From Candidatus Moraniibacteriota bacterium (lineage in GTDB: Bacteria; Patescibacteriota; Minisyncoccia; Moranbacterales; GWC2-37-73), in NCBI GenBank assembly GCA_035390125.1, contig DAOOTD010000002.1, forward strand, positions 233,908 to 297,907: 64,000 bases of DNA. Reading direction: 5' to 3'. The notes under the pieces were generated by a model that saw nothing but the letters and a program-made list of their open reading frames with translations, was not told the DNA's origin and ran no database searches. Shown here piece by piece: positions 8,185-46,585 of this stretch. Every line of letters starts with the position of its first letter. Within the stretch, counting starts at the first letter, position 1. The position numbers and the translations under genes are program-made.

Positions 8185-9032
8185 TTTATGGAATTATAAT
8201 TGGGTTGCTTGTATTATTTTTAATTTTAACTGGAATTATTTTTTCAGTGCAAAAAAATAATTTGCAGGTAGTTTTTCTAAATATTGGCCAAGGTGATGCC
8301 ATTCTGATTTCACAAGGAAAAAATCAAATTCTTATTGACGGTGGTAAAGATGGAAAATTGCTTTTGGAAAAGCTTGGAAAATATATTCCATTTTGGGATC
8401 GGAATGTCGAAATGATAGTTGCAACTCATCCAGACCAGGACCATATAGGAGGGCTTATTGAAATTTTGAATTCATATCATGTAGATTTGATTTTTAAGAC
8501 AAATGCAGAAAGCGAATCAGAGACATATAAAAAACTTGAAGAAGAAATTGCAAAAGAAAAATCGCAAAAAATTGAGGCCAAAAAAGGTATAAGCATAAAA
8601 TTGTCTGACAGTGTTACTGCCGACGTACTTTTTCCAATTGATTCGCTTACTGATACGATTGATGGAGCCAGCAATGACAACAGCGTTGTAGTTAAATTAA
8701 CTTACGGCATAAACAAATTTCTTTTTACTGGCGATCTTCCAAATACTCAGGAAACAAAAATTATAAATTCAGGTCAAGATTTAAATGCTCAAGTTTTAAA
8801 AGTTTCACATCATGGTTCAAAATATGCAACTGAAAATAATTTTTTGGGTGTTGTAAATCCAGCTGACGCTATTATTTCTGTTGGTAAAAATAATCAATAT
8901 GGTCATCCGAATCAGGAAGTTTTAAACCGTTTATTGCAGCATAAAATAAAAATTTTCCGGACTGATGAAATAGGGGATATTGTATATAAATGCGCAAATG
9001 CGGAAGCGCAATGCATGCAAGTTGCCAACTGA
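8163..9032 (+). CDS. comEC: ComEC C-terminal metallo-beta-lactamase domain (separate ORF, alternate frame)
   Basis: An N-terminal TM helix followed by the MBL motifs ATHPDQDHIGG and SHHGS. It is in frame with upstream sequence from 8100. Confidence 0.75.
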   Translation: MQNNRKIIYGIIIGLLVLFLILTGIIFSVQKNNLQVVFLNIGQGDAILISQGKNQILIDGGKDGKLLLEKLGKYIPFWDRNVEMIVATHPDQDHIGGLIEILNSYHVDLIFKTNAESESETYKKLEEEIAKEKSQKIEAKKGISIKLSDSVTADVLFPIDSLTDTIDGASNDNSVVVKLTYGINKFLFTGDLPNTQETKIINSGQDLNAQVLKVSHHGSKYATENNFLGVVNPADAIISVGKNNQYGHPNQEVLNRLLQHKIKIFRTDEIGDIVYKCANAEAQCMQVAN

Positions 9033-9080
9033 TTTTTTTTGTGATAAATTAAATTCTAATAAAGATTAATTTTTTTAAAT

Positions 9081-9686
9081 ATGAAAAATCCAGCCATAAA
9101 AGAAAGGACATTTGTCATCATAAAACCTGATGGCATACAAAGATCATTAATAGGAGAAATTATAAGAAGAATCGAAAGAACGGGTTTAAAGTTCACAGCT
9201 ATGAAGCTTGTTGTATTAGATGAAGATAAATTATGGAAACATTACAATAAGAATGATGAATGGTTTGAAAAAAAGGGAGGAAATATAGCTAAAGAAATTG
9301 AAGCCAAAAGGCTACCAGTGGAAAAACCAGCCATTGAATATGGCAAGGACATTCTGCGTCATTTAGTAGCTTTTATGACTTCAGGTCCTGTCATAGTAAT
9401 GATTGTTGAAGGCAATCAAGCGGTTGGAATTGTCAGAAAGATTGTTGGTGGAACAGAACCATTGTCTTCAGATATTGGAACTATTCGTGGAGATTTAACA
9501 ATAGATTCTTATGCCTTGTCTGGAATTGACGGAAGGGCTGTAAGAAACTTAGTTCATTGTTCAGAAAGTCCAGAAGAAGCAGAAAGAGAAATCGCTCTTT
9601 GGTTTAATGAAAATGAAATATTAAAATACAGATTAGTACAGGATCAAATTTTATATGATGTAAATCTGGACGGTATAATTGAATAA
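9081..9686 (+). CDS. ndk: Nucleoside diphosphate kinase (long variant with insertions)
   Basis: FVIIKPDG N-terminus, active-site NLVHCSES, 201 aa. Confidence 0.8.
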   Translation: MKNPAIKERTFVIIKPDGIQRSLIGEIIRRIERTGLKFTAMKLVVLDEDKLWKHYNKNDEWFEKKGGNIAKEIEAKRLPVEKPAIEYGKDILRHLVAFMTSGPVIVMIVEGNQAVGIVRKIVGGTEPLSSDIGTIRGDLTIDSYALSGIDGRAVRNLVHCSESPEEAEREIALWFNENEILKYRLVQDQILYDVNLDGIIE

Positions 9687-9702
9687 CTTTGCTTTTAATA
9701 TA

Positions 9703-9733
9703 AAAAAGCTCCAATTTATAGGAGCTTTTTTTA
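9703..9733 (+). terminator. Rho-independent terminator after ndk
   Basis: AAAAAGCTCC-aatttata-GGAGCTTTTTTTATT. Confidence 0.6.
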
Positions 9734-9828
9734 TTGCTCCAATTCTGATATGCTTTAGGCATAAGCCAGCTTTGCTTTTATTCTCGTGGGCATTGACACG
9801 CCGAATCCTAGCTAAAGCTTGGATAAGG

Positions 9829-9899
9829 CGGGGTGTAGTATACCGGTAGTACGCGTCCATGGGGTGGATGTAGACCGGGTTCAATTCCCGGCATCCCGA
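9829..9899 (+). tRNA. tRNA-Pro (anticodon GGG)
   Basis: Hand-folded cloverleaf. The acceptor is CGGGGTG paired with CATCCCG. The D arm is GTAT-ACCGGTA-GTAC. The anticodon arm is CGTCC-AT GGG GT-GGATG. The T arm is CCGGG-TTCAATT-CCCGG. The discriminator is A and no CCA is encoded. Confidence 0.65.
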
Positions 9900-9915
9900 C
9901 ATTAAAAATAAAACT

Positions 9916-10308
9916 ATGATTCAGCGCGCAGCAGTTATTGTGATAAAAAACAATAAAATACTTCTCATATATCGAAGAAGAAACAACTCTGAATATTTTG
10001 CAGTGCTGGGCGGACATATTGAAAATGGAGAATCTCCGGAAATTGCTGCTATCCGTGAATTGAGAGAAGAAACAAATTTGAATGCTGAAATTGACTATCT
10101 TTTTTTGGAAAATGAAGGCAATGGATGGCATAATTATTTTTTCATGGCAAAAAACATAAAAGGCGAGGCTACTTTTGGCGGAGAAGAACTTGAAAGAAAT
10201 AGCGAAGAAAATCATTATGAATTGAAATGGGTAGAATTATCCAAACTTTCTGAAGCCAATCTTTTACCAGTTGAAGTAAAGCAAAAAATTATCGAAAAAT
10301 TTATATGA
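9916..10308 (+). CDS. NUDIX hydrolase
   Basis: Nudix box GGHIENGESPEIAAIRELREETNL. Confidence 0.75.
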   Translation: MIQRAAVIVIKNNKILLIYRRRNNSEYFAVLGGHIENGESPEIAAIRELREETNLNAEIDYLFLENEGNGWHNYFFMAKNIKGEATFGGEELERNSEENHYELKWVELSKLSEANLLPVEVKQKIIEKFI

Positions 10309-10910
10309 CTTTTTTAAAACCTAAAAATAAATATACAATTGTTACTAAAAATATTATTCTTAATAATGAAAAAATTAAGTATACAATTCGCAGGCATAGA
10401 AAAGCAATAAGATTAAAAATAGCCATATCTTGTGATGGAAATTGTACAGTAACCTTGCCCTGGCGCTTAGGCTTATGGAATGCAGACGATTTTATCCGGC
10501 AAAATTCCAAATGGATTTTAGAGAAAACAGAAAAAATAAAAAAAATCAGCAACAATAACCTGCTTTTTCAGCAAAATAGGAAAGAATATCTTAAACTTAA
10601 AGAATATGCTAGAGATTTTGTCATAAAAAAAATCGAGAAACTTAATGAAGTTTATAAATTTGAATATAAAAAAATAATTATCAGAAATCAAAAAACAAGA
10701 TGGGGGAGCTGTAGTTCCAAGGGAAATTTGAATTTCAATTACAAAATAATATTTTTGCCGGAAGAATGTGTAAATTATATTATTGTTCACGAACTTTGCC
10801 ATCTTCGGGAATTTAATCATTCTGAAAAATTTTGGAATTTAGTAATGCATAATATTCCAGAATACAAAAAAATAAAAAAGCAAATAAAAGCTCTGCAGAA
10901 AGCTTTCTAA
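10305..10910 (+). CDS. YgjP/DUF45-like metal-dependent hydrolase
   Basis: HELCHLREFNHSEKFWNLV motif (HExxH...FW) near the C-terminus. Confidence 0.6.
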   Translation: MTFLKPKNKYTIVTKNIILNNEKIKYTIRRHRKAIRLKIAISCDGNCTVTLPWRLGLWNADDFIRQNSKWILEKTEKIKKISNNNLLFQQNRKEYLKLKEYARDFVIKKIEKLNEVYKFEYKKIIIRNQKTRWGSCSSKGNLNFNYKIIFLPEECVNYIIVHELCHLREFNHSEKFWNLVMHNIPEYKKIKKQIKALQKAF

Positions 10911-10968
10911 AGTTATTGATAATTCGCTTAAGTTATTCATTTTTTAATATAATATATTTATAAAAAAT

Positions 10969-11631
10969 ATGCATAAATTATTCTTAGATATTGAAACCTT
11001 ACCAGCAGATGAAGAAAAAAAAGAAACTTTAAAAATTCTTTTTGACAAAAAGCATGATGAATTTAGCCAGGAAAAATTCGATGACTTTCTGGTCAAGACC
11101 AGTTTTGACGGCGCTTATGGTCGCATACTTTGCATTGGCTATGCAGTGGATGATGAAAAGCCTAAGAATTTTTACAATGAAAATAATGAAAAAAAGACAT
11201 TGCAGGAATTCTGGGATTTAGTGAATGCGCTCAGTATAGCTCCGCGCAACGTACAGTATCCAGATTACGGACTTATTTTTGTCGGTCATAACGTCATGGA
11301 TTTCGATCTAAGATTTATTTATCAGCGTTCCATAGTTCTCGGAGTAAAGCCGGCTTATGAAATAAATTTTGCGCGATACAGAAATTATCCGATTTTCGAT
11401 ACTATGAAAGAGTGGGTTAAATGGAGCAATAATGGTGTTGGTTTGGAATATTTGGCTTTAGCACTTGGCGTACCCTCACCGAAAGATGGAATTGATGGAT
11501 CACAAGTTGCTGAATTCTACAAACAAGGAAAAATAAATGATATTCTTGAATATTGTAAAAGAGATGTTGAAACTGCTCGGGAAATATACAAAAAAATGAC
11601 TTTTGAAAAGACGTCAAAAACATTATTTTGA
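10969..11631 (+). CDS. Stand-alone PolB-like DEDDy 3'-5' exonuclease (RNase H-like fold)
   Basis: Exo I FLDIETLP, Exo II GHNVMDFDLRFIY, Exo III YCKRDVETAREIY. Confidence 0.55.
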   Translation: MHKLFLDIETLPADEEKKETLKILFDKKHDEFSQEKFDDFLVKTSFDGAYGRILCIGYAVDDEKPKNFYNENNEKKTLQEFWDLVNALSIAPRNVQYPDYGLIFVGHNVMDFDLRFIYQRSIVLGVKPAYEINFARYRNYPIFDTMKEWVKWSNNGVGLEYLALALGVPSPKDGIDGSQVAEFYKQGKINDILEYCKRDVETAREIYKKMTFEKTSKTLF

Positions 11632-11704
11632 GAAAATTTGTTATAAAATCATAGATATTTTGTATTATTGTCTGCAAGTATTAAAACTAGAGGAGGTGAT
11701 ATTT

Positions 11705-11917
11705 ATGAAAAAATTAAATGTGTTGGATTGGGTTGCTCTCGTGCTTGTAATTGTAGGGGCTGTGAACTGGGGTTTGTTAGGTTTATTTGGTTTTGACTTA
11801 GTGGCCGCCATTTTTGGCAGTATGTCATTATTGTCTAGAATTGTATATGGTCTGGTTGGACTTTCAGGAGTATACTTTATTTTTATAGTGAATATGTTGG
11901 GCAAAAAATCTGACTAA
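11705..11917 (+). CDS. DUF378-family small membrane protein
   Basis: GAVNWGLLGLFGFDLVAAIFG motif. A strong RBS GAGGAGGTG sits 6 nt upstream of the ATG at 11705. Confidence 0.6.
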   Translation: MKKLNVLDWVALVLVIVGAVNWGLLGLFGFDLVAAIFGSMSLLSRIVYGLVGLSGVYFIFIVNMLGKKSD

Positions 11918-11937
11918 ATGTTTTTTGGATCCAAAAA

Positions 11938-11976
11938 AGAAAAATTCCTAAGCTTCTGAGCGAAGGAATTTTTCTT
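11938..11976. terminator. Bidirectional terminator hairpin
   Basis: AAATTCCT-aagcttctgagcga-AGGAATTT flanked by A/T runs. It lies between convergent genes. Confidence 0.5.
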
Positions 11977-11992
11977 AAAATAATAGAAATAT

Positions 11993-12166
11993 TTATTTGC
12001 TTTTACTTTTGGTTTTTATACATTTTGTACAAATTTTTACTTTTTTGCCGTCAATTTTTTTAGTTTGAATATTGATTGCAAATTTTCTTCGGGTAGCTAT
12101 ATTTGAATGGCTTCGTGAATTTCCAAAAGTTGTTCCGCGGCCGCATATATTACATGCTCGACTCAT
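11993..12166 (-). CDS. rpmB: 50S ribosomal protein L28
   Basis: MSRACNICGRGTTFGNSRSHSNIATRRKFAINIQ matches the L28 consensus. The start was chosen at an internal Met of the listed ORF. Confidence 0.8.
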   Translation of the reverse strand: MSRACNICGRGTTFGNSRSHSNIATRRKFAINIQTKKIDGKKVKICTKCIKTKSKSK

Positions 12167-12262
12167 ATGTTTTTTTATAATAATAATTTGATTTGTTACG
12201 CATTTCATTGTATCATGCACAAAGGGTTTTGGCAAGAGTGGATTTGTATAATTTGAAAGAAT

Positions 12263-34610: not shown

Positions 34611-35384
34611 ATGAAAAAGATAATAGTTGGAAACCTGAAAATGAACCTACTGAGCTCTGCTGAACGCAAAAAATATTTTGAATTGTTTAAAAAAGAATTA
34701 AAAAAAAGGAAAATAACAAATGCCGAGTTTGTTTTATGCCCCCCATATGTCCATGTCGAATCTTTTGTTAAAGAGTTGAAAGCAAAAAATATTTCAATCG
34801 GATCTCAAAATATTTTTTGGGAAGAGAAAGGTCCATATACGGGAGAAATTTCTGTGCCGATGATAAAGAATATGGGAGGGGAATATGTAATTCTTGGGCA
34901 TAGTGATCGGAGAAAATATTTTTTTGAAAATGATGATAAGATAAATTTAAAAATTCATGCTGTTCTGAAGAATGGATTGAAAGTTATTCTTTGTGTTGGT
35001 GAAAATGCCGAGGAAAAGAAAAATGGAAGTGGAGAGGCGGTAATTTTTGAACAATTAAAAAATTGCTTAAACAACATAAATACTAAAAAAATAGCTGATG
35101 TCATAATTTGCTATGAACCGGTCTGGGCCATAAGTTCAAATAATCCCAATCGTTTGCCAGTAATTGATGAAATAATGAGTGCAAAAATATTGATAAAAAA
35201 ATTTTTAATTAGAAAATATAAATTAAAAGTTGCCGAAAAAGTAAAAATTATTTATGGCGGTTCGGTTTTTCCTGAAAATATAAAAGAAACATGCATAGAG
35301 CCGGGCATGGACGGAGTTTTAGTCGGAAAAGAAAGCCTTAATCCTTTGAATTTCATTAAAATGGCTGAAACAATTGATAAATAA
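34611..35384 (+). CDS. tpiA: Triosephosphate isomerase
   Basis: VGNLKMN, GHSDRR, CVGE, EPVWAI motifs. Confidence 0.9.
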   Translation: MKKIIVGNLKMNLLSSAERKKYFELFKKELKKRKITNAEFVLCPPYVHVESFVKELKAKNISIGSQNIFWEEKGPYTGEISVPMIKNMGGEYVILGHSDRRKYFFENDDKINLKIHAVLKNGLKVILCVGENAEEKKNGSGEAVIFEQLKNCLNNINTKKIADVIICYEPVWAISSNNPNRLPVIDEIMSAKILIKKFLIRKYKLKVAEKVKIIYGGSVFPENIKETCIEPGMDGVLVGKESLNPLNFIKMAETIDK

Positions 35385-35399
35385 ATAATACAAAAACAT

Positions 35400-36305
35400 A
35401 TGATTACATCTGTTAAAGAAATTTTAAACAAAGCTCAAAAAGGCGGATATGCAGTCGGAGCATTTAATACGACAAACCTGGAAACTACAAGAGCTATTAT
35501 TGATGCTGCCAAAGAAATGAATAGTCCGGTTATTATTCAAGTGACTGAGAAAACATTGGAATATGCAGGTGGTCGTGCCATATTTCAGTTAATAAAAAAT
35601 TGTGCAGAATTTTATGCCCCTGATATTCCAATTGGTATCCATCTCGATCATGGTAGAAATTTAGAAATAATTGAACGTTGTGTTGATGTGATAGGCTTTA
35701 ATTCGGTAATGTATGATGGTTCGAGGAAAGCCTATGAAGATAATGTGCTTGCAACAAGAAAAGTTGTTGAATTGTATCATAAAAAAAATGTATGTGTTCA
35801 AGGAGAATTAGGGAGTGTTCCTTATATTGGTGAAACTTCAATGGCTGGTGAAATTGATTGGGATAAATATATGACTGATCCCGATCAGGCTGCAGACTAT
35901 TATTGCCGTACAGGCATAGACGCTTTAGCTGTGGCTATCGGTAATGCGCACGGATTCTTTAAAGAACGCAAGGAACCGGATTATGAACGACTTGAAGCTA
36001 TTCATAAAAAAATTCCCATACCGCTTATTTTACATGGGGCGTCCGATTGGGAAAACGGTAAAGTAAAGGAAGTAATTGCACGCGGTGTATGTTGTTTCAA
36101 CGTAGATACAGCCATAAGGTTGTCTTTTATAAATAGTATTGTTAAAATGGCGCGCCAGCAGAATGATATATCTTTTGATATAAGGAAAGTTTTGGGTGAT
36201 GCTCAAGAAGCTGTAAAAAATGCAGTCAAAGAAAGGATCCGCTATTATGGCAGTGAAGGAAAAGCTCCGGGAAAAGAAAAAATTGAATGTGTTGATCATT
36301 CATAA
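35400..36305 (+). CDS. fba: Class II fructose-bisphosphate aldolase
   Basis: GGYAVGAFN, HLDHG. Confidence 0.85.
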   Translation: MITSVKEILNKAQKGGYAVGAFNTTNLETTRAIIDAAKEMNSPVIIQVTEKTLEYAGGRAIFQLIKNCAEFYAPDIPIGIHLDHGRNLEIIERCVDVIGFNSVMYDGSRKAYEDNVLATRKVVELYHKKNVCVQGELGSVPYIGETSMAGEIDWDKYMTDPDQAADYYCRTGIDALAVAIGNAHGFFKERKEPDYERLEAIHKKIPIPLILHGASDWENGKVKEVIARGVCCFNVDTAIRLSFINSIVKMARQQNDISFDIRKVLGDAQEAVKNAVKERIRYYGSEGKAPGKEKIECVDHS

Positions 36306-36349: not shown

Positions 36350-37117
36350 ATGAAAAAACAAAAAGTAGCCATTGTGAGCCTGTCATCTTGTAAGGGATGT
36401 CAATTTGCTTTGCTTAATTTGGGAAAAAAATTTATTGATATCATGAAGAATGTTGAAATTGTTGATTTTGATTTGTTTAAAATTAATAGTAACTCAGAAT
36501 TAATATTGGATATAGGTTTTGTTGAAGGTAACCCAATAACGGAAGAAGATAAAAAAACACTAATATCTCTCAGGGAAAAAAGCAAAAAATTAGTTGTTTT
36601 AGGAAATTGCGGAGCAATGGGAGGAATTCCAGAAATAAAAAATTATCGTGAACAAAAACAATCAGCCAAACACTTTTATAGATATATACACGGCATAAAA
36701 GATGAGCCAATTAAAGAAATTGATAATTTTGTAAAAGTTGATTTTACTTTCCCTGGTTGTCCGATTAGCGGAGAAGAATTTCTAGAATATTTTCCAATTA
36801 TTTTAGAAAGTGCAATTTCTAGCAAAGATTTTCCAAAAATTCCGGATAAATCGGTTTGCATACAATGCAGAGCAAAAGGAAACAGGTGTTTGCTTTTAGA
36901 TAAAAAACCGTGTTTTGGTTCAATGATTTTGGGCGGTTGTGATGCTGTGTGTCCTAGCTATAATATGCCATGCCAAGGTTGTCGGGGATTGCGTCCTTCA
37001 ACTAACATAAAAGAGGTGCGTGAATCTTTAAGAAACATAATAAATGATGAAGAATTCGAAAATATATCTGAGATATATGGTTTAAGGGATGATATAGAAG
37101 CAAAGGAAAAAAAATAA
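36350..37117 (+). CDS. [NiFe]-hydrogenase small subunit (group 3-like) with extra C-terminal Fe-S cysteine clusters
   Basis: CKGCQ proximal-cluster motif, GNCGAMGG, FPGCPISGEEF, and a C-terminal CIQC...CxxC...CPSYNMPCQGC region. Confidence 0.7.
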   Translation: MKKQKVAIVSLSSCKGCQFALLNLGKKFIDIMKNVEIVDFDLFKINSNSELILDIGFVEGNPITEEDKKTLISLREKSKKLVVLGNCGAMGGIPEIKNYREQKQSAKHFYRYIHGIKDEPIKEIDNFVKVDFTFPGCPISGEEFLEYFPIILESAISSKDFPKIPDKSVCIQCRAKGNRCLLLDKKPCFGSMILGGCDAVCPSYNMPCQGCRGLRPSTNIKEVRESLRNIINDEEFENISEIYGLRDDIEAKEKK

Positions 37118-37121
37118 AAAT

Positions 37122-38384
37122 ATGTCTCTAAACATAAATTACATCGCGAATATCGAAAGTCAAACCGATATTATATCGGAAATTATTAAAGGTAATCTGA
37201 GGAGCCATAAATTGCGATTATTGAGGGATTCTCGTATTATCGAAAATGTCATAATAGGCCGGTACTACAAAGAAATGCCTACTATTGTCCAAAGAATTTG
37301 CGGAAATTGCTCAGTTTCTCATAATATGGCATCCATTAAGGCTATTGAAAAAGCCATGAAAATTGAGGTTAGTGAAGAAACAATAAAGTTTAGAAAAATT
37401 ATAGAATGTGCCCAATTTATTTATTCTCATTCTTTCAATCTTTTTATTCTGTCGGTAGTTCATTCTATGAATATTGAAAATGAATTACAATCAGCTGATG
37501 AATACAGTGAAGAAACAAAAAAAATTCAAAAAATAAGAGAATATGGAATTGAGATCATAAATTTAATAGGTGGAAGAACAATACACCCACTGACAAATGA
37601 AGTTGGGGGGTTTAAAAAAGTTCCAACAAAAAATGAAATAAAAAATCTTATATCAAAAGGAGAAGAAATACTGCCGGCAATGATAGAAATAGCTGATTTT
37701 TTTAAAAATATAAAATTGCCTAATTTTAGTCGGCCAACAGAATACATTTGTCTTAAAAGTAATGGAGAATACGCTATGTATGATGGAGACGTTGTTTCTA
37801 ATAAGGGATTATATGTAAGCAAAAATGATATTGAAAACAATTTTTATGCTTTTCACCGTCCAAAGGAAATTATTAAAAGAATCAATCCGGACAGCAAAAC
37901 GAGTTATATGGTCGGGGCTATTGCCAGGGTCAATAATAATTATGATAAGCTTTCAAATAATGCAAAAAGATATTTAGAATCATTGAATTTTAACAAAATG
38001 GACTATAATCCATTTCATAATATTTTATACAAAGCAGCTGAAATCATACATTGCATTGAGGAATCAACAAAATTATTAAGAGAAATTGCTAATGTAGACT
38101 TTACAGGTGCACTAACTAAAGAATACACTGTCCAAGAAGGTAGAGCAGCGGCAGCTATTGAAGATCCGCGAGGAACATTGTATTATTGGGTTGATATAGA
38201 TGCTAAGGGTTATATAAAAAATATTAATATTATTACGCCAACGGCGCAGTTCTTGTCTAATCTTGAAGATGATATTTCGGTTTTTATTCCTGGGATAAAA
38301 AATGTTAGTGAAAAAGAAAAAGAAAAAAAGATTCGCGCATTTATTCGGGCATATGATCCTTGCATGGGTTGCATAACGCGTTAG
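37122..38384 (+). CDS. [NiFe]-hydrogenase large subunit
   Basis: N-terminal RICGNCSVSH (RxCGxCxxxH). The C-terminus is DPCMGCITR and ends without a cleavable extension. Confidence 0.8.
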   Translation: MSLNINYIANIESQTDIISEIIKGNLRSHKLRLLRDSRIIENVIIGRYYKEMPTIVQRICGNCSVSHNMASIKAIEKAMKIEVSEETIKFRKIIECAQFIYSHSFNLFILSVVHSMNIENELQSADEYSEETKKIQKIREYGIEIINLIGGRTIHPLTNEVGGFKKVPTKNEIKNLISKGEEILPAMIEIADFFKNIKLPNFSRPTEYICLKSNGEYAMYDGDVVSNKGLYVSKNDIENNFYAFHRPKEIIKRINPDSKTSYMVGAIARVNNNYDKLSNNAKRYLESLNFNKMDYNPFHNILYKAAEIIHCIEESTKLLREIANVDFTGALTKEYTVQEGRAAAAIEDPRGTLYYWVDIDAKGYIKNINIITPTAQFLSNLEDDISVFIPGIKNVSEKEKEKKIRAFIRAYDPCMGCITR

Positions 38385-38440: not shown

Positions 38441-39433
38441 ATGTTAAAAATAGCAATAAATGGTTTTGGACGAATAGGCCGTCCTTCATTCAAGATTGCC
38501 TTTGAAAAAGAAGATATGGAAGTAGTCGCAATTAATGATCTTACTGATATAGAAACAAGTGCTCATCTGCTTAAGTATGATTCTTCTTACGGAATATATG
38601 TTAGGAGAGTTTCTGCAGACAGAGAAAATAATGAAATAATAATAGATGGCAAACCCATTAAGTATTTTTCTGAAAAGGATCCAACCAATCTCCCGTGGGA
38701 TAAATTGGAAGTTGATGTGGTGCTTGAATGCACGGGAGTTTTTCTTGATCAAATCTCAGCGCAAAAGCACATTGATGCTGGTGCTAAAAAAGTTGTTATG
38801 TCAGCTCCGCCAAAAGACGAAACGCCAGTGTACCTATTGGGTGTAAACGAGAAGGAGTATAAAAATGAATCAATTATTTCTAACGGATCTTGTACTACCA
38901 ATTGCTTGGCGCCAATGATAAAAGTTCTTGATGATTTATGCGAAGTTGAACAAGGTTTTATGACAACTACCCATTCCTATACTAATGACCAGAACTTATT
39001 GGATCTGCCCCATAGAGATTTGAGACGCGCCAGAGCTGCAGCTATGAGTATTATCCCGACAACCACTGGAGCTGCTAAAACGGTCGGCAAGGTTCTGACT
39101 CACCTCAAAGGAAAGCTGGACGGCATTGCTTTAAGAGTCCCAACTCCTGTTGTTTCGATTGTTGATTTTATTTGTACAGTCAAAAATCCGAAAAATATAG
39201 AAGAAATTAATGAAGCTTTTGCTAATGCTTCCAAGGGAGAGTTAAAAGGTATTTTGGATGTCACAAAAGAAGAATTAGTTTCTATAGATTATAAAATGAA
39301 TCCACATAGCGCTATTGTAGATTTGCCGCTGACTATGTCTCAGGGAAAAATGGTTAAAATAGTCGGGTGGTATGATAATGAATGGGGATATTCCAATAGG
39401 CTAGTAGAAACGGCTGAATATATTTCTAAATAA
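38441..39433 (+). CDS. gap: Glyceraldehyde-3-phosphate dehydrogenase
   Basis: INGFGRIGR; SCTTNCLAP active site. Confidence 0.95.
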   Translation: MLKIAINGFGRIGRPSFKIAFEKEDMEVVAINDLTDIETSAHLLKYDSSYGIYVRRVSADRENNEIIIDGKPIKYFSEKDPTNLPWDKLEVDVVLECTGVFLDQISAQKHIDAGAKKVVMSAPPKDETPVYLLGVNEKEYKNESIISNGSCTTNCLAPMIKVLDDLCEVEQGFMTTTHSYTNDQNLLDLPHRDLRRARAAAMSIIPTTTGAAKTVGKVLTHLKGKLDGIALRVPTPVVSIVDFICTVKNPKNIEEINEAFANASKGELKGILDVTKEELVSIDYKMNPHSAIVDLPLTMSQGKMVKIVGWYDNEWGYSNRLVETAEYISK

Positions 39434-39525
39434 TTTTTCCCTATATAAGCCTTTTTATAGAATAATGATTTGACAATCTATTTGTTTTTGCTATTTTTTA
39501 GTTAGAATAAAGTACTTAAAAATAA

Positions 39526-39652
39526 GCGGGGTGGGAATAATTGAAAAAACAAAAGCAGCAAAAAATGTTCTAAATCAATTAAAAGCTCTTTTGACAGGAA
39601 GAGCTGCGATTCAGTAACGGAGAAGCTAAGAAGTGTTTCCAGCCCGCTTTTT
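39526..39652 (+). ncRNA. Candidate structured RNA / elaborate terminator (unassigned)
   Basis: GCGGGGTGGG at the 5' end pairs with CCAGCCCGC at the 3' end, followed by TTTTT. An internal perfect hairpin AGCUCUU-uugacagg-AAGAGCU is present. No ORF. Confidence 0.2.
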
Positions 39653-39781
39653 AAAAATTTTAAGGAGGGATAAGTTAATCATTAATATGATTATATTTCC
39701 CTCCCGATTTACTCCAATAATCAAGTGCTTCAATGTAGGCGCTTTTTATATTTTGACCTCCTTTTTGTAAATTAAAAAACA

Positions 39782-39790
39782 TGGTACAAT
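39782..39790 (+). promoter_or_regulatory. Extended -10 TGgTACAAT upstream of smc
   Basis: Read directly. Confidence 0.3.
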
Positions 39791-39864
39791 ATAATAAATT
39801 ATAATTAACTGTTTTAGAAAGATGCTATAAAAATGGCTCTTTGGTTTTGTGCTTTAATTTTTTT

Positions 39865-42670: not shown

Positions 42671-42762
42671 TTGTTTTTATGATATAATTTAAGCTAGAAA
42701 ATATTATTTTTTAATAATTTCAATGTAAATTTGTTTTAATAATTTTGCATTGTATTAAAAAA

Positions 42763-45141
42763 ATGAATACAAAAATCAGTTTTGTAACTTTATTTTCAGT
42801 CTTATCACTTGTTCTTGTTTGTGGAATTTTTCTTCCCATAAAAACAGTAAATGCCGCGGTTGGTTCTTTTTCTTGTTCTGATTATCAAACTGCTCCTACT
42901 GGTTCTGGCTTCGGCTATATAACGCTTTGGAATAATAAAATTACAGGAACAATAACCAGTTCTGTTAGTCCAGGAGGAACCGTAACAGTTTATTTGAAAG
43001 ATATATCCTATACGGGTACAGGCTCGCAGGAATGGCATAAACCAGTATATGGCACTATAGGTGGAGTTCAGAGATCTTTTACTGGATCAAACCAAGCAGT
43101 ACCTGGCAGTGGCTATCTTCCTTATTTTGAAAGTACTCAAACTTTTCCTGCTCCCTCTACTCCGGGAACTTATACATTACAATTAACAAGTAGCTGGGAT
43201 GGAAGAAATTTATGTTCCTGTTCTTCCTGCAGTGCTGGTACTTTTACAGTTACTGCTCCTGCCTACTGCACTTTGCCTTGGGGAGGAACAATATCAAACG
43301 GCGCCTCAGTTTATGCTTATTATTATCCTTCAGTTGCCTGTGGCTTAGATTGTGCTAATTACCGTCAGACACGAACTTGCAATAATGGAGTTTTGAGTAA
43401 TTCAAATACTTATCAAAGTTGCTATACACAGGCTTGTGCTTCATGCAGTCTCCCTTGGGGCGGAACCGTGGCTCATGGCGGTTCAGTGACTGCCTACGCT
43501 TCAGGTTCAGTTCCTTGTGGATCATCCTGCACCAGCCAGACTAGAACCTGCAGCAATGGAACACTTAGTGGTTCATATACTAATTCAAGTTGTAGTGTAG
43601 CAGCTTGTGCCTGCAATCTACCCTGGGGAGGCACATTAACTCATGGCGGTTCAGTGACTGCCTACGCTTCAGGTTCAGTTCCTTGTGGATCATCCTGCAC
43701 CAGCCAGACTAGAACCTGCAGCAATGGAACACTTAGTGGTTCATATACTAATTCAAGTTGTAGTGTAGCAGCCTGTGCTTCCTGTACTTCACCCTGGGGC
43801 ACAACTGTAGTTCATGGCAGTTCTATTACTGCTTATCTTTCCAATTCAGCTGCAACATGTACTAGTCAGACAAGGACATGCAACAATGGAACATTAAGTG
43901 GTTCATATATATACCAAACTTGTACACGTTCTTGTACTTTGCCCTGGGGCGGAACAGTGGCTAGCGGTTCTTCTTTTACTGCCTATCAATCAAGTTCAGT
44001 GCCTTATGGGTCATCCTGTGTCAGCCAGACCAGAACCTGTACTGATGGAACATTAAGTGGTTCATACTCTAATCAAACTTGCAATGTAGCAGCCCCAGCT
44101 TCATGCAGTCTCCCTTGGGGCGGAACCGTGGCTCATGGCGGTTCAGTGACTGCCTACGCTTCAGGTTCAGTTCCTTGTGGATCATCCTGCACCAGCCAGA
44201 CTAGAACCTGCAGCAATGGAACACTTAGTGGTTCATATACTAATTCAAGTTGTAGTGTAACACCCTGCCCTTGCACCTTGCCTTGGGGAGGAACCCTAGC
44301 TCACGGAAGCTCAGTAACTGCTTATTTGTCCAGTTCAGCTGTAACCTGCACCAGTCAAACAAGAACATGCAATAATGGAACACTTAGCGGTTCATATACG
44401 TATCAAAGCTGTTTACGCTCATGCGCTATACCTTGGGGCGGAACAGTAGCTAGCGGTTCTTCTTTTACTGCCTATCAATCAAATTCAGTTCCTTGTGGAT
44501 CATCCTGCACCAGCCAGACCAGAACCTGCACTAATGGAACACTAACTGGTTCATATTCCAACAGAACTTGCAGCGTAGCACCTTGTCCTTGTACTTCACC
44601 TTGGGGTACAACCGTGGCTCATGGCAGTTCTATCACTGCCTACTCCTCAAGTTCAGTAGCCTGCGGATCATCCTGTGATAGTGTCAAACAAAATAGAACC
44701 TGCACCAATGGAGTCTTGAGCGGAACAGCCACCAACCAAAACTGCAGCGTAGCACCTTGTCCCTGCACCACGCCTTGGGGCACAACTGTAGCTAGCGGCA
44801 GTTCAGTCGACGCCTATAAAGACAGCTATGCACCTTATGGATCAGAGTGTGTCAAAGAAACTAGACAATGCACGGATGGAAGCTTAAATGGTTCCTATAC
44901 CAACCAGAGCTGCTGTCAGGCAGATAACTGCGAGCAAAGAACCTGCCAAGGCAAGCAATGCAATAATGGCTGCAAGCTTATGGATGGCGTCAAAACTGAC
45001 GGTGCCTGCTGTGTCTCAAATGGTTGTGAAAAAAACACCTGCAAAGGCAAAACTTGCGATAATGGATGTATTTCTAACGCCTATGGAACCAAGAAATGTT
45101 CCGGCCCAGTAGGCCCAGGCATTTGGACGGAGATATATTAA
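42763..45141 (+). CDS. Secreted cysteine-rich tandem-repeat protein (about 10 repeats of about 47-57 aa) with a Cys-rich C-terminal domain
   Basis: Signal peptide MNTKISFVTLFSVLSLVLVCGIFLPIKTVNA. Repeats follow C-x-LPWGGTVAHGGSVTAY-x6-CGSSCTSQTRTC-x-NGTLSGSY-x4-C. The C-terminus is CCQADNCEQRTC...CKGKTCDNGC. Confidence 0.7.
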   Translation: MNTKISFVTLFSVLSLVLVCGIFLPIKTVNAAVGSFSCSDYQTAPTGSGFGYITLWNNKITGTITSSVSPGGTVTVYLKDISYTGTGSQEWHKPVYGTIGGVQRSFTGSNQAVPGSGYLPYFESTQTFPAPSTPGTYTLQLTSSWDGRNLCSCSSCSAGTFTVTAPAYCTLPWGGTISNGASVYAYYYPSVACGLDCANYRQTRTCNNGVLSNSNTYQSCYTQACASCSLPWGGTVAHGGSVTAYASGSVPCGSSCTSQTRTCSNGTLSGSYTNSSCSVAACACNLPWGGTLTHGGSVTAYASGSVPCGSSCTSQTRTCSNGTLSGSYTNSSCSVAACASCTSPWGTTVVHGSSITAYLSNSAATCTSQTRTCNNGTLSGSYIYQTCTRSCTLPWGGTVASGSSFTAYQSSSVPYGSSCVSQTRTCTDGTLSGSYSNQTCNVAAPASCSLPWGGTVAHGGSVTAYASGSVPCGSSCTSQTRTCSNGTLSGSYTNSSCSVTPCPCTLPWGGTLAHGSSVTAYLSSSAVTCTSQTRTCNNGTLSGSYTYQSCLRSCAIPWGGTVASGSSFTAYQSNSVPCGSSCTSQTRTCTNGTLTGSYSNRTCSVAPCPCTSPWGTTVAHGSSITAYSSSSVACGSSCDSVKQNRTCTNGVLSGTATNQNCSVAPCPCTTPWGTTVASGSSVDAYKDSYAPYGSECVKETRQCTDGSLNGSYTNQSCCQADNCEQRTCQGKQCNNGCKLMDGVKTDGACCVSNGCEKNTCKGKTCDNGCISNAYGTKKCSGPVGPGIWTEIY
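43260..44890 (+). repeat. Coding tandem repeat array with nucleotide-identical blocks
   Basis: Blocks of about 130-160 nt occur at about 43441-43600, 43630-43760 and 44101-44260 and read identical or near-identical. Confidence 0.8.
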
Positions 45142-46433: not shown

Positions 46434-46585
46434 GATATTTGGAAAATTTAATATAGTAAGTCCGCAGACAATGGGAGGCTGTAAAAAAGCGTAATACCCA
46501 TCGAGGAATATCAGAAACATTTTAATGTTTTTGGTAACAAAGGTCGATCTGTGGAAACGCAGATTTTTTAATTGCAAATAATATC
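46434..46585 (+). promoter_or_regulatory. L10 leader region with intrinsic attenuator hairpin (46547..46572)
   Basis: AUCUGUG-GAAA-CGCAGAU followed by UUUUUU immediately upstream of the rplJ start; about 150 nt leader. Confidence 0.4.

Follow-up and report, generated by a model that had tools for sequence, protein, structure and literature searches.

A [NiFe] hydrogenase subunit pair between glycolytic genes in Candidatus Moranbacteria and its orthologues with and without adjacent maturation genes

The gene cluster

The DNA analysed here (the window) is a stretch of 64,000 nucleotides from contig DAOOTD010000002.1 of a member of Candidatus Moranbacteria, a lineage of the Candidate Phyla Radiation (CPR, equivalent to Patescibacteria) with a low-GC genome (about 33%). 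It contains five consecutive genes on the plus strand, in which the two subunits of a [NiFe] hydrogenase are enclosed by glycolytic enzymes. The first glycolytic gene of the cluster is tpiA for triose-phosphate isomerase (TIM; 34611–35384; PF00121, E 1e-72), followed by fba for a class II fructose-bisphosphate aldolase (35400–36305; PF01116, E 1e-85; TIGR01859, E 3e-84). Then come the genes for a delta-like hydrogenase small subunit of 255 amino acids (hydS, 36350–37117; PF01058, E 2e-18) and an alpha-like large subunit of 420 amino acids (hydL, 37122–38384; PF00374, E 2e-24, above the cut-off), and finally gap for a type I, NAD-type GAPDH (38441–39433; PF00044 and PF02800; TIGR01534, E 9e-122, above the cut-off). 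The large subunit is 100% identical to the NCBI proteins HOW60757.1 and HRZ33356.1, which are annotated as Candidatus Moranbacteria. The organism is abundant in digester samples (JGI 3300025706 and 3300009776).

From tpiA to gap, the spacers measure 15, 44, 4 and 56 nt. A consensus scan detected no terminator-like sites between the genes; the sole plus-strand site of this kind in the tpiA–gap span lies inside fba at 36108, and the first terminator-like hairpin with a T-run downstream, likewise from the consensus scan only, is located at 39723–39744 (+) in the gap–smc spacer. Promoter-like matches were found at chance level (41 versus 38 expected). From the spacing, we infer that tpiA, fba, hydS, hydL and gap would form one transcript. 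An earlier interpretation of the window by a model that had access to the letters and translated open reading frames only (the sequence-only reading) had described a two-subunit [NiFe] hydrogenase within a closely spaced and presumably co-transcribed tpiA-fba-hydS-hydL-gap cluster. The open reading frames, Pfam families, flanking genes and measured distances agree with this description, and the short spacers and missing terminator-like sites fit a common transcript.

Metal ligands and relation to group 3b hydrogenases

The best-characterized relative of the pair is soluble hydrogenase I (SHI) of Pyrococcus furiosus, a sulfhydrogenase of group 3b with subunits of similar size (about 420 and 255 amino acids). 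The small subunit encoded in the window contains the motifs SCKGCQ, GNCGAMGG and PGCPISG and eight further cysteines at positions 170–211. Cysteines C14, C17, C87 and C137 of the proximal cluster (codons within 36389–36760, +) align to SCYGC, GACAVQGG and YGCP of SHI delta, and the cysteines of the medial and distal [4Fe-4S] clusters, C170, C173, C180, C188, C197, C201, C208 and C211 (codons within 36857–36982, +), align to SHI delta as well. None of these 12 Fe-S cysteines varies among the 69 small subunits compared from Moranbacteria. The alignment shows them as the predicted ligands of three [4Fe-4S] clusters, which would be a sufficient wire to the protein surface.

In the large subunit, the N-terminal Ni-Fe ligand motif RICGNCSVSH (residues 58–67 with C60, C63 and H67; 37293–37322, +) aligns to RICSFCSAAH of SHI alpha, while the other 74 orthologues from Moranbacteria read RICGICP[VI]VH at this site. 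EDPRG with the pendant (canopy) arginine R350 (38160–38174, +) corresponds to EAPRG, and the C-terminal Ni-Fe motif DPCMGCITR (residues 412–420 with C414 and C417; 38355–38381, +) to DPCISCS(VH). Thus, all four Ni-Fe and all 12 Fe-S cysteines match those of the solved structures of SHI alpha and delta, and the large subunit additionally keeps Arg350, Asp412 of the DPC motif, which is the aspartate partner, Glu12 and His67. The motifs of both subunits and the additional C-terminal Fe-S cysteines named by the sequence-only reading were all recovered; the absence of Ni-binding cysteines on a proper alignment, which would have spoken against a hydrogenase, was not observed.

The stop codon (38382–38384) directly follows DPCMGCITR, so that the large subunit has no C-terminal extension, as the sequence-only reading had noted. 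The protein ends at the motif position in 79 of 79 orthologues from Moranbacteria, and the missing extension is therefore a trait of the clade. Since the large subunit is made at its mature length, no endopeptidase would be needed for its maturation. The SHI precursor (428 amino acids), in contrast, has four more residues after the motif, and the SHI chain of 419 amino acids ends at the histidine.

Among the NCBIfam models, the large subunit matched sulfhydrogenase HydA (E 7e-50) and ShyA (E 5e-48) best, followed by FrhA (3e-30) and VhuA (3e-27), and the small subunit matched ShyD (E 2.5e-37) and HydD (E 9e-37). The sulfhydrogenase families are thus well ahead of F420-reducing and Mvh-type subunits, although the equivalog cut-offs were not reached (170 versus 880 bits for HydA and 129 versus 460 bits for ShyD). 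In the PDB, the best matches were SHI alpha for the large subunit (E 1.3e-44 over residues 3–418; next class 6e-31) and SHI delta (9nez_A, E 3e-31) for the small subunit. An AlphaFold model of the large subunit was of moderate quality (mean pLDDT 68), with an N-terminus that was probably modelled wrongly, and was used for fold assignment only. Its top Foldseek match was again SHI alpha (9nf0_H, TM score 0.70, E 7e-17), and all top 50 matches were [NiFe] or [NiFeSe] large subunits, including that of the SHI alpha-delta heterodimer 9e15. By the ranking of the best NCBIfam and PDB matches, the pair is predicted to form the catalytic alpha/delta core of a cytoplasmic [NiFe] hydrogenase of the group 3b type. 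It shares with SHI the Ni-Fe cysteines, an EAPRG-type arginine and the 12 Fe-S cysteines of delta, but it is only about 26% identical to SHI, lacks genes for the beta and gamma subunits, lies inside a glycolytic cluster and belongs to a bacterial CPR host. By its genes, the pair is a natural counterpart of the SHI alpha-delta heterodimer, for which a structure has been solved (PDB 9e15).

Two subunits and a missing C-terminal extension are also found in H2-sensing hydrogenases of group 2b, and the sequence-only reading had accordingly considered a sensing hydrogenase, which in this context would control the expression of glycolytic genes. The low catalytic demand on a sensor would also tolerate the changes around the active site that are described below. 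However, neither the window nor the sister loci encode a histidine kinase, PAS protein or other signalling partner, and the nearest relatives by sequence and fold belong to group 3b, with no group-2 family among the best NCBIfam and PDB matches. Moreover, the missing extension is common to the whole Moranbacteria clade, including enzymes that are linked to hyp genes and have intact catalytic motifs. A sensor function is therefore very improbable.

Hydrogenases related to group 3b are already known from CPR bacteria, and the pair in the window is in itself an expected CPR hydrogenase. Two CPR-specific types were described, which have a small subunit and sometimes hypC nearby: hyd1, with a mean small-subunit length of 250 amino acids and beta and gamma subunits that were sometimes not detected, and hyd2, with a truncated small subunit of 164 amino acids on average (Jaffe et al., 2020, PMC7304191). 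With 255 amino acids, the small subunit in the window resembles that of hyd1 and not that of hyd2, and genes for beta and gamma subunits are absent from the whole Moranbacteria clade. In a study from 2024, four-subunit 3b complexes were modelled for Berkelbacteria and Moranbacteria.

Hydrogenase islands at the same site in other Moranbacteria

A scan of one genome per GTDB species yielded 80 related loci, all from metagenome-assembled genomes of Moranbacteria or Parcubacteria, and further loci were added via homologues. The gene order at these loci is strikingly conserved and consists of a galT-like gene, a small exporter gene, tpiA, fba, the hydrogenase island and gap, followed by an amidohydrolase gene and murD or by smc. 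Because the same order recurs in tens of species, the arrangement is not due to chance. Outside the compact subclade described below, 47 of 55 loci have gap at most 6 kb downstream, and 25 of 44 have fba at most 10 kb upstream. Large subunits of this predominant form, here termed P-type (CGICPVVH ... DPCISCAVH), are 55–65% identical to the one in the window, have 420 amino acids without an extension and are likewise encoded between fba and gap.

Most of the P-type islands carry hypC, hypD, hypE, a reduced hypF (hypF') and a HypA-like gene, whereas S-type loci such as the window have none of these. The HypA-like gene directly follows the large-subunit gene in all 66 non-compact loci with enough downstream sequence (examples are L045:11307-11582 and L004:9325-9600, given as locus and positions). 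It encodes a protein of about 90 amino acids with an MHD N-terminus and a weak match to PF01155, which covers the N-terminal domain only, and without zinc-finger cysteines. Upstream, hypC was found in 26 of 44 non-compact loci with enough sequence. Both hypD (GPGCPVC and GFETT motifs; PF01924, E 8e-118) and hypE, the product of which ends in PRIC, are frequent in these islands, and many loci have the run hypC-hypD-hypE-hypF' between fba and the small-subunit gene. The HypF of these islands is cut to its Kae1-like C-terminal half of about 400 amino acids (PF17788 and PF22521; L086:7839-9050, minus strand, and 36 other loci); the acylphosphatase, zinc-finger and YrdC-like domains are missing, and its gene, although part of the island, runs in the opposite direction.

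According to this comparison, the subunit pair already resided between fba and gap before the Moranbacteria diversified, and it was at first accompanied by hypC, hypD, hypE, hypF' and the short hypA-like gene. The apparent embedding in the window is thus the remainder of a conventional hydrogenase/hyp island that has long been seated between these two genes. The sequence-only reading had named maturation genes in a conventional hydrogenase operon as a sign of ordinary subunits that merely adjoin glycolysis; such genes were found at the other Moranbacteria loci, but not at the window locus.

In addition to the hyp genes, the non-compact islands contain several optional inserts. Between the subunit genes, about 17 loci encode an M10 zinc metallopeptidase that carries a membrane or signal segment at its N-terminus (L004:6951-7964; L001:6594-7571); because the large subunit has no extension, the peptidase has no obvious substrate there. 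A PDDEXK protein is another insert at this position. Between the large-subunit gene and the HypA-like gene, a gene for desulfoferrodoxin (superoxide reductase) is present in L071 (3341-3721) and 17 other loci, which suggests a link of the hydrogenase to oxygen-stress defence in some Moranbacteria. L001 additionally has a bAvd-like gene and a reverse transcriptase gene, a pair resembling a diversity-generating retroelement, between the large-subunit gene and gap (10730-12175). Between fba and hypC, L056 (4117-7389) and 7–8 other loci encode a NuoE-like, a NuoF-like and a [FeFe]-hydrogenase-like protein; the latter comprises 464 amino acids and has a Fe_hyd_lg_C domain in which DYCP replaces TSCCP. 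This trio is either a second hydrogenase-like unit or possibly a diaphorase beside the [NiFe] genes.

In loci without hypDEF, other genes are present. Directly upstream of the [NiFe] small-subunit gene, three of them encode a HypC fused to a HydE-like radical-SAM/BATS protein beside a HydG-like protein with CX2CX22C (L004:1231-3970, L049:5419-8158, L078:7551-8945), which may point to a hybrid pathway for assembling the Fe-CO/CN unit. We found no paper on this arrangement. Apparent HydG-like genes downstream of three further loci proved false, as the motif match lay in histidyl-tRNA synthetase. In others, the place after hypC is taken by a family of 225 amino acids without a Pfam match (L055:225-902; 13 loci) or by DUF6390 with an EamA transporter (L031:6487-7212; 3 loci); BLASTP detected no similarity between the 225-amino-acid family and DUF6390.

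The window belongs to a compact, hyp-less subclade, the S-type, which further comprises the GTDB loci L028, L030, L032 and L050 and the additional loci L089, L090, L091, L172 and L173. All ten loci have the form tpiA-fba-small-large-gap-smc without hypC or the HypA-like gene. One or two small extra open reading frames occur between the subunit genes in three of them (a PDDEXK protein in L173), and no other accessory genes were found within 10 kb on either side. The HypA-like gene was absent from all four compact loci of the GTDB-plus-window set with at least 1.5 kb of downstream sequence, and none was called in the five further S-type loci. In S-type large subunits, CS[VAT][AVS]H replaces CPVVH, and a 5-amino-acid insertion is present in the small subunits of all compact members except L050. 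In a rough neighbour-joining tree of GAPDH, the compact loci were nested among hyp-bearing lineages, indicating that the compact state is derived. This tree did not recover them as one clade, while the common change from CPVVH to CS.. and the insertion in the small subunit (not in L050) suggest a single origin. Scanning metagenomes with the GAPDH from the window for more compact loci returned only generic GAPDHs with 50–57% identity.

The absence of accessory genes at the window locus extends over about 84 kb, the window plus roughly 10 kb of housekeeping genes on either side. In this region, Pfam annotation and a scan for cysteine motifs detected no genes for Hyp proteins, beta/gamma or HoxEFU-type diaphorase subunits, ferredoxin, rubredoxin or an endopeptidase, where the result for HypB and the endopeptidase rests on Pfam annotation of open reading frames without a dedicated query. 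No match at E < 0.1 was obtained by tblastn with HypA, HypC, HypD, HypE, HypF, NuoE, NuoF, HydE, HydG and superoxide reductase from Moranbacteria, and queries with the [FeFe]-like protein, DUF6390 and the unnamed 225-amino-acid family gave none in the window either. This agrees with the sequence-only reading, which had seen neither diaphorase nor hyp genes there. A HypD profile search found no copy on known contigs of the window lineage among the best 120 matches (down to E 1e-176). However, the related locus L174 contains hypC, a gene for a 220-amino-acid unknown protein and hypD among housekeeping genes (8675-11020), with no hydrogenase structural gene within 10 kb. In view of this unlinked pair, absence from the locus does not prove loss of the hyp genes. 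The only candidate for a small redox carrier near the window is a flavodoxin-like protein of 154 amino acids (L007:7043-7507), encoded about 3 kb upstream of the window start; nothing ties it to the hydrogenase.

Electron partners, altered constraint and possible functions

CPR bacteria are regarded as obligate fermenters, and their disposal of reductant is poorly understood. Our preferred reading, to which we assign a probability of roughly 0.5, is that the pair is a working hydrogenase of alpha and delta subunits only that is connected via ferredoxin or pyruvate:ferredoxin oxidoreductase (PFOR) rather than NADH, possibly with a reduced or shifting function. Transcription of tpiA, fba, hydS, hydL and gap as one unit would tie the abundance of the pair to the glycolytic flux, and this co-expression would constitute a regulatory link, not a biochemical link to the NADH from GAPDH. 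Without a flavin/NAD(P) module, the heterodimer would exchange electrons with ferredoxin or flavodoxin, or directly with PFOR, and would then release the reductant of fermentation as H2. For its maturation, the enzyme would require hyp genes at another genomic location. The engineered alpha-delta heterodimer of P. furiosus SHI was highly active with methyl viologen but did not use NADPH, and it produced H2 from pyruvate with PFOR in the absence of a carrier (PMC3200332). Because the pair in the window similarly has no flavin/NAD(P) module, a low-potential carrier or PFOR would be its electron partner.

Alternatively, the enzyme could re-oxidise the NADH from GAPDH via a beta/gamma- or HoxEFU-type diaphorase encoded elsewhere. 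The closest characterized enzyme, SHI, is linked to NADPH, the hydrogenase genes adjoin gap, and NuoE, NuoF and an Fe-S/[FeFe]-like protein are encoded between fba and hypC in eight or nine Moranbacteria loci. Furthermore, some group-3b clusters of CPR bacteria include beta and gamma subunits, sometimes at non-adjacent positions (Jaffe et al., 2020, PMC7304191). However, no beta/gamma-type gene was recognised in about 90 loci of the clade or in the 84 kb around the pair, and the trio with NuoE and NuoF, which resembles a HydABC-type unit of its own, is absent from all compact loci. Formation of H2 from NADH is also thermodynamically unfavourable unless the H2 concentration is very low. We therefore consider an NAD(P)H-linked hydrogenase unlikely. 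The more direct version in the sequence-only reading, in which H2 turnover was tied to the reductant of GAPDH, is not upheld, since the pair has no NAD(H)-binding part and the alpha-delta core of SHI alone cannot use NADPH (PMC3200332).

Several observations weigh against a normally functioning alpha-delta hydrogenase. No hyp gene, ferredoxin, PFOR or any other partner was seen in the 84 kb around the pair. In addition, the subunits changed at positions that are otherwise conserved, as judged from alignment columns with at least 97% conservation among the 74 other orthologues, with neighbouring housekeeping genes of the same genomes as control. In the large subunit from the window, 42 of 158 such columns (27%) were changed, compared to 5–17% in its compact relatives and a leave-one-out median of 0.6% in the other orthologues; in the small subunit, it was 11 of 98 columns, compared to 3–11% among compact members and a median of 0%. 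Among the housekeeping controls, compact members had 0% changed columns in GAPDH, 0–1% in FBA, 0–4% in TIM, 0–1% in GalT and 2–4% in SMC; for the window itself, the values of these five proteins were only 0–2.5%. The nonsynonymous divergence (dN) relative to GAPDH was 2.7 for the large and 2.5 for the small subunit in the subclade, in contrast to 1.07 and 1.12 in other Moranbacteria. Shifted positions of the large subunit were enriched in the first 51 residues (10/25; odds ratio 2.7, p 0.036).

The pendant arginine is also affected. It has been described as strictly conserved, and its exchange for lysine left only 1–10% of H2 oxidation and 0.4–2% of H+ reduction in E. coli Hyd-1 and Hyd-2 (PMC10430524). 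We surveyed the 120 best homologue clusters, of which 104 were P-type and 16 S-type. While the arginine was kept in 102 of 102 parsed P-type clusters, 5 of the S-type clusters retain it, 6 have glutamine and 5 have lysine instead, which corresponds to a loss of arginine in 11 of 16. All 104 P-type clusters end in His, and EAPRG is present in all 74 GTDB orthologues outside the compact subclade. In two of the 16 S-type clusters, the aspartate of DPC is changed to asparagine, and the GTDB orthologue L032 ends in DVCANCAIN.

Decay into pseudogenes can be rejected as an explanation, because all ten S-type loci have uninterrupted open reading frames that do not vary in length and the ratio of nonsynonymous to synonymous divergence (dN/dS) is about 0.1. 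All 16 metal-binding cysteines are kept in these loci as well. Within the subclade, dN/dS values ranged from 0.07 to 0.19. For the large subunit, dN/dS was about 0.12 in the subclade versus 0.05 elsewhere, and the closest pair, L028/L030, gave 0.07 for the large and 0.105 for the small subunit at an unsaturated dS of 0.39–0.48. Both S-type subunits thus appear to be under relaxed and shifted, but still clearly purifying selection. Shifted positions of the large subunit were depleted in residues 161–340 and include positions 415, 416 and 418–420 in the C-terminal motif. Since both termini interact with HypA in the course of maturation (PMC12134894), the shifts there would fit the disappearance of the neighbouring HypA-like gene and hypC.

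These data also bear on a further, more tentative reading, in which the pair derives from a hydrogenase but now acts as an Fe-S protein that turns over little or no H2. Following the loss of the dedicated maturation genes, it would have been kept for another redox role, such as electron transfer, redox sensing or a regulatory function connected with the glycolytic operon. Such a role would be consistent with the HypA-like gene being present in 66 of 66 other loci and in none of the checkable compact loci, with the hydrogenase-specific 2.5- to 2.7-fold rise in rate in both subunits, with changes in 16–27% of the otherwise conserved large-subunit columns (only 5% in L050) and with the replacement of the pendant arginine in S-type clusters only. 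The low dN/dS and the 16 retained cysteines imply that something is still selected. Relatives of [NiFe] large subunits that are kept without normal H2 catalysis are known, namely the group-4 Ehr proteins of CPR bacteria and the scaffold proteins HoxV and HupK (PMC7304191; PMC12134894), and repurposing in the S-type subclade would be comparable. However, CPR Ehr lost the metal-binding cysteines (Jaffe et al., 2020, PMC7304191), whereas the protein in the window keeps all four and the arginine. The four Ni-Fe cysteines most simply mean a Ni-Fe site, and Arg350, Asp412, Glu12 and His67 are kept in the window and in its nearest relatives of the arginine type, P0029 and P0037 (EDPRG ... TR). In addition, hyp genes may be located at other sites, for which the unlinked hypCD pair in L174 is an example, and no alternative partner or function was identified.

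It is possible, although doubtful, that the S-type pair as a group, without maturation machinery and mostly without the catalytic arginine, represents a hydrogenase in transition towards another, glycolysis-linked redox protein. Such a protein could be a very slow H2 valve or have no H2 role, possibly with a non-canonical or Hyp-independent metal site. Under the preferred reading as an alpha-delta hydrogenase, the enzyme in the window may have a low activity or a role that is drifting away from H2 turnover, given that constraint is relaxed and that the arginine varies in sister lineages.

What is unusual is the occurrence of hyp-linked, frozen and hyp-less, drifting orthologues at the same chromosomal site. 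We found no description of the location between fba and gap, of the absent extension or of the fast-evolving subclade without adjacent hyp genes (also not in PMC7304191), in a search that mostly did not extend to subscription literature, where an earlier mention is possible. A natural group-3b enzyme of alpha and delta only would match the "minimal hydrogenase" engineered from P. furiosus. Sister lineages with hyp genes and a frozen active-site shell versus those without hyp genes and with a varying shell (Arg to Gln or Lys) provide a built-in comparison, and this contrast allows asking how far a [NiFe] hydrogenase can be stripped and what is selected once H2 catalysis need no longer be efficient. 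For genome annotation, it follows that a "group 3b hydrogenase" in a CPR genome should not by itself be read as a sign of NAD(P)H-linked H2 production or of sulfur reduction.

The remainder of the window is occupied by housekeeping genes, including ftsA/ftsZ, nrdD, a ribosomal protein operon, secY, smc and cell-envelope genes. The spacer between gap and smc is unusually long (407 nt, 39434–39840) and contains a promoter-like TTGACA-16-TATTTT at 39470. A search of the window against Rfam gave no match in this spacer and detected only two tRNAs and a ribosomal protein L10 leader (RF00557, 47.9 bits) at 46444–46578 (+), upstream of rplJ/rplL. A gene at 42745–45141 (+) encodes a protein of 798 amino acids with an N-terminal signal-like segment, 70 cysteines and no Pfam match, in which a unit of roughly 50 amino acids is repeated (C.LPWGGT..HG.SVTAY..SV.CGSSC.SQTRTC.NGTLSGSY). 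This gene lies in the sole stretch of raised GC content (0.39–0.40 versus about 0.33).

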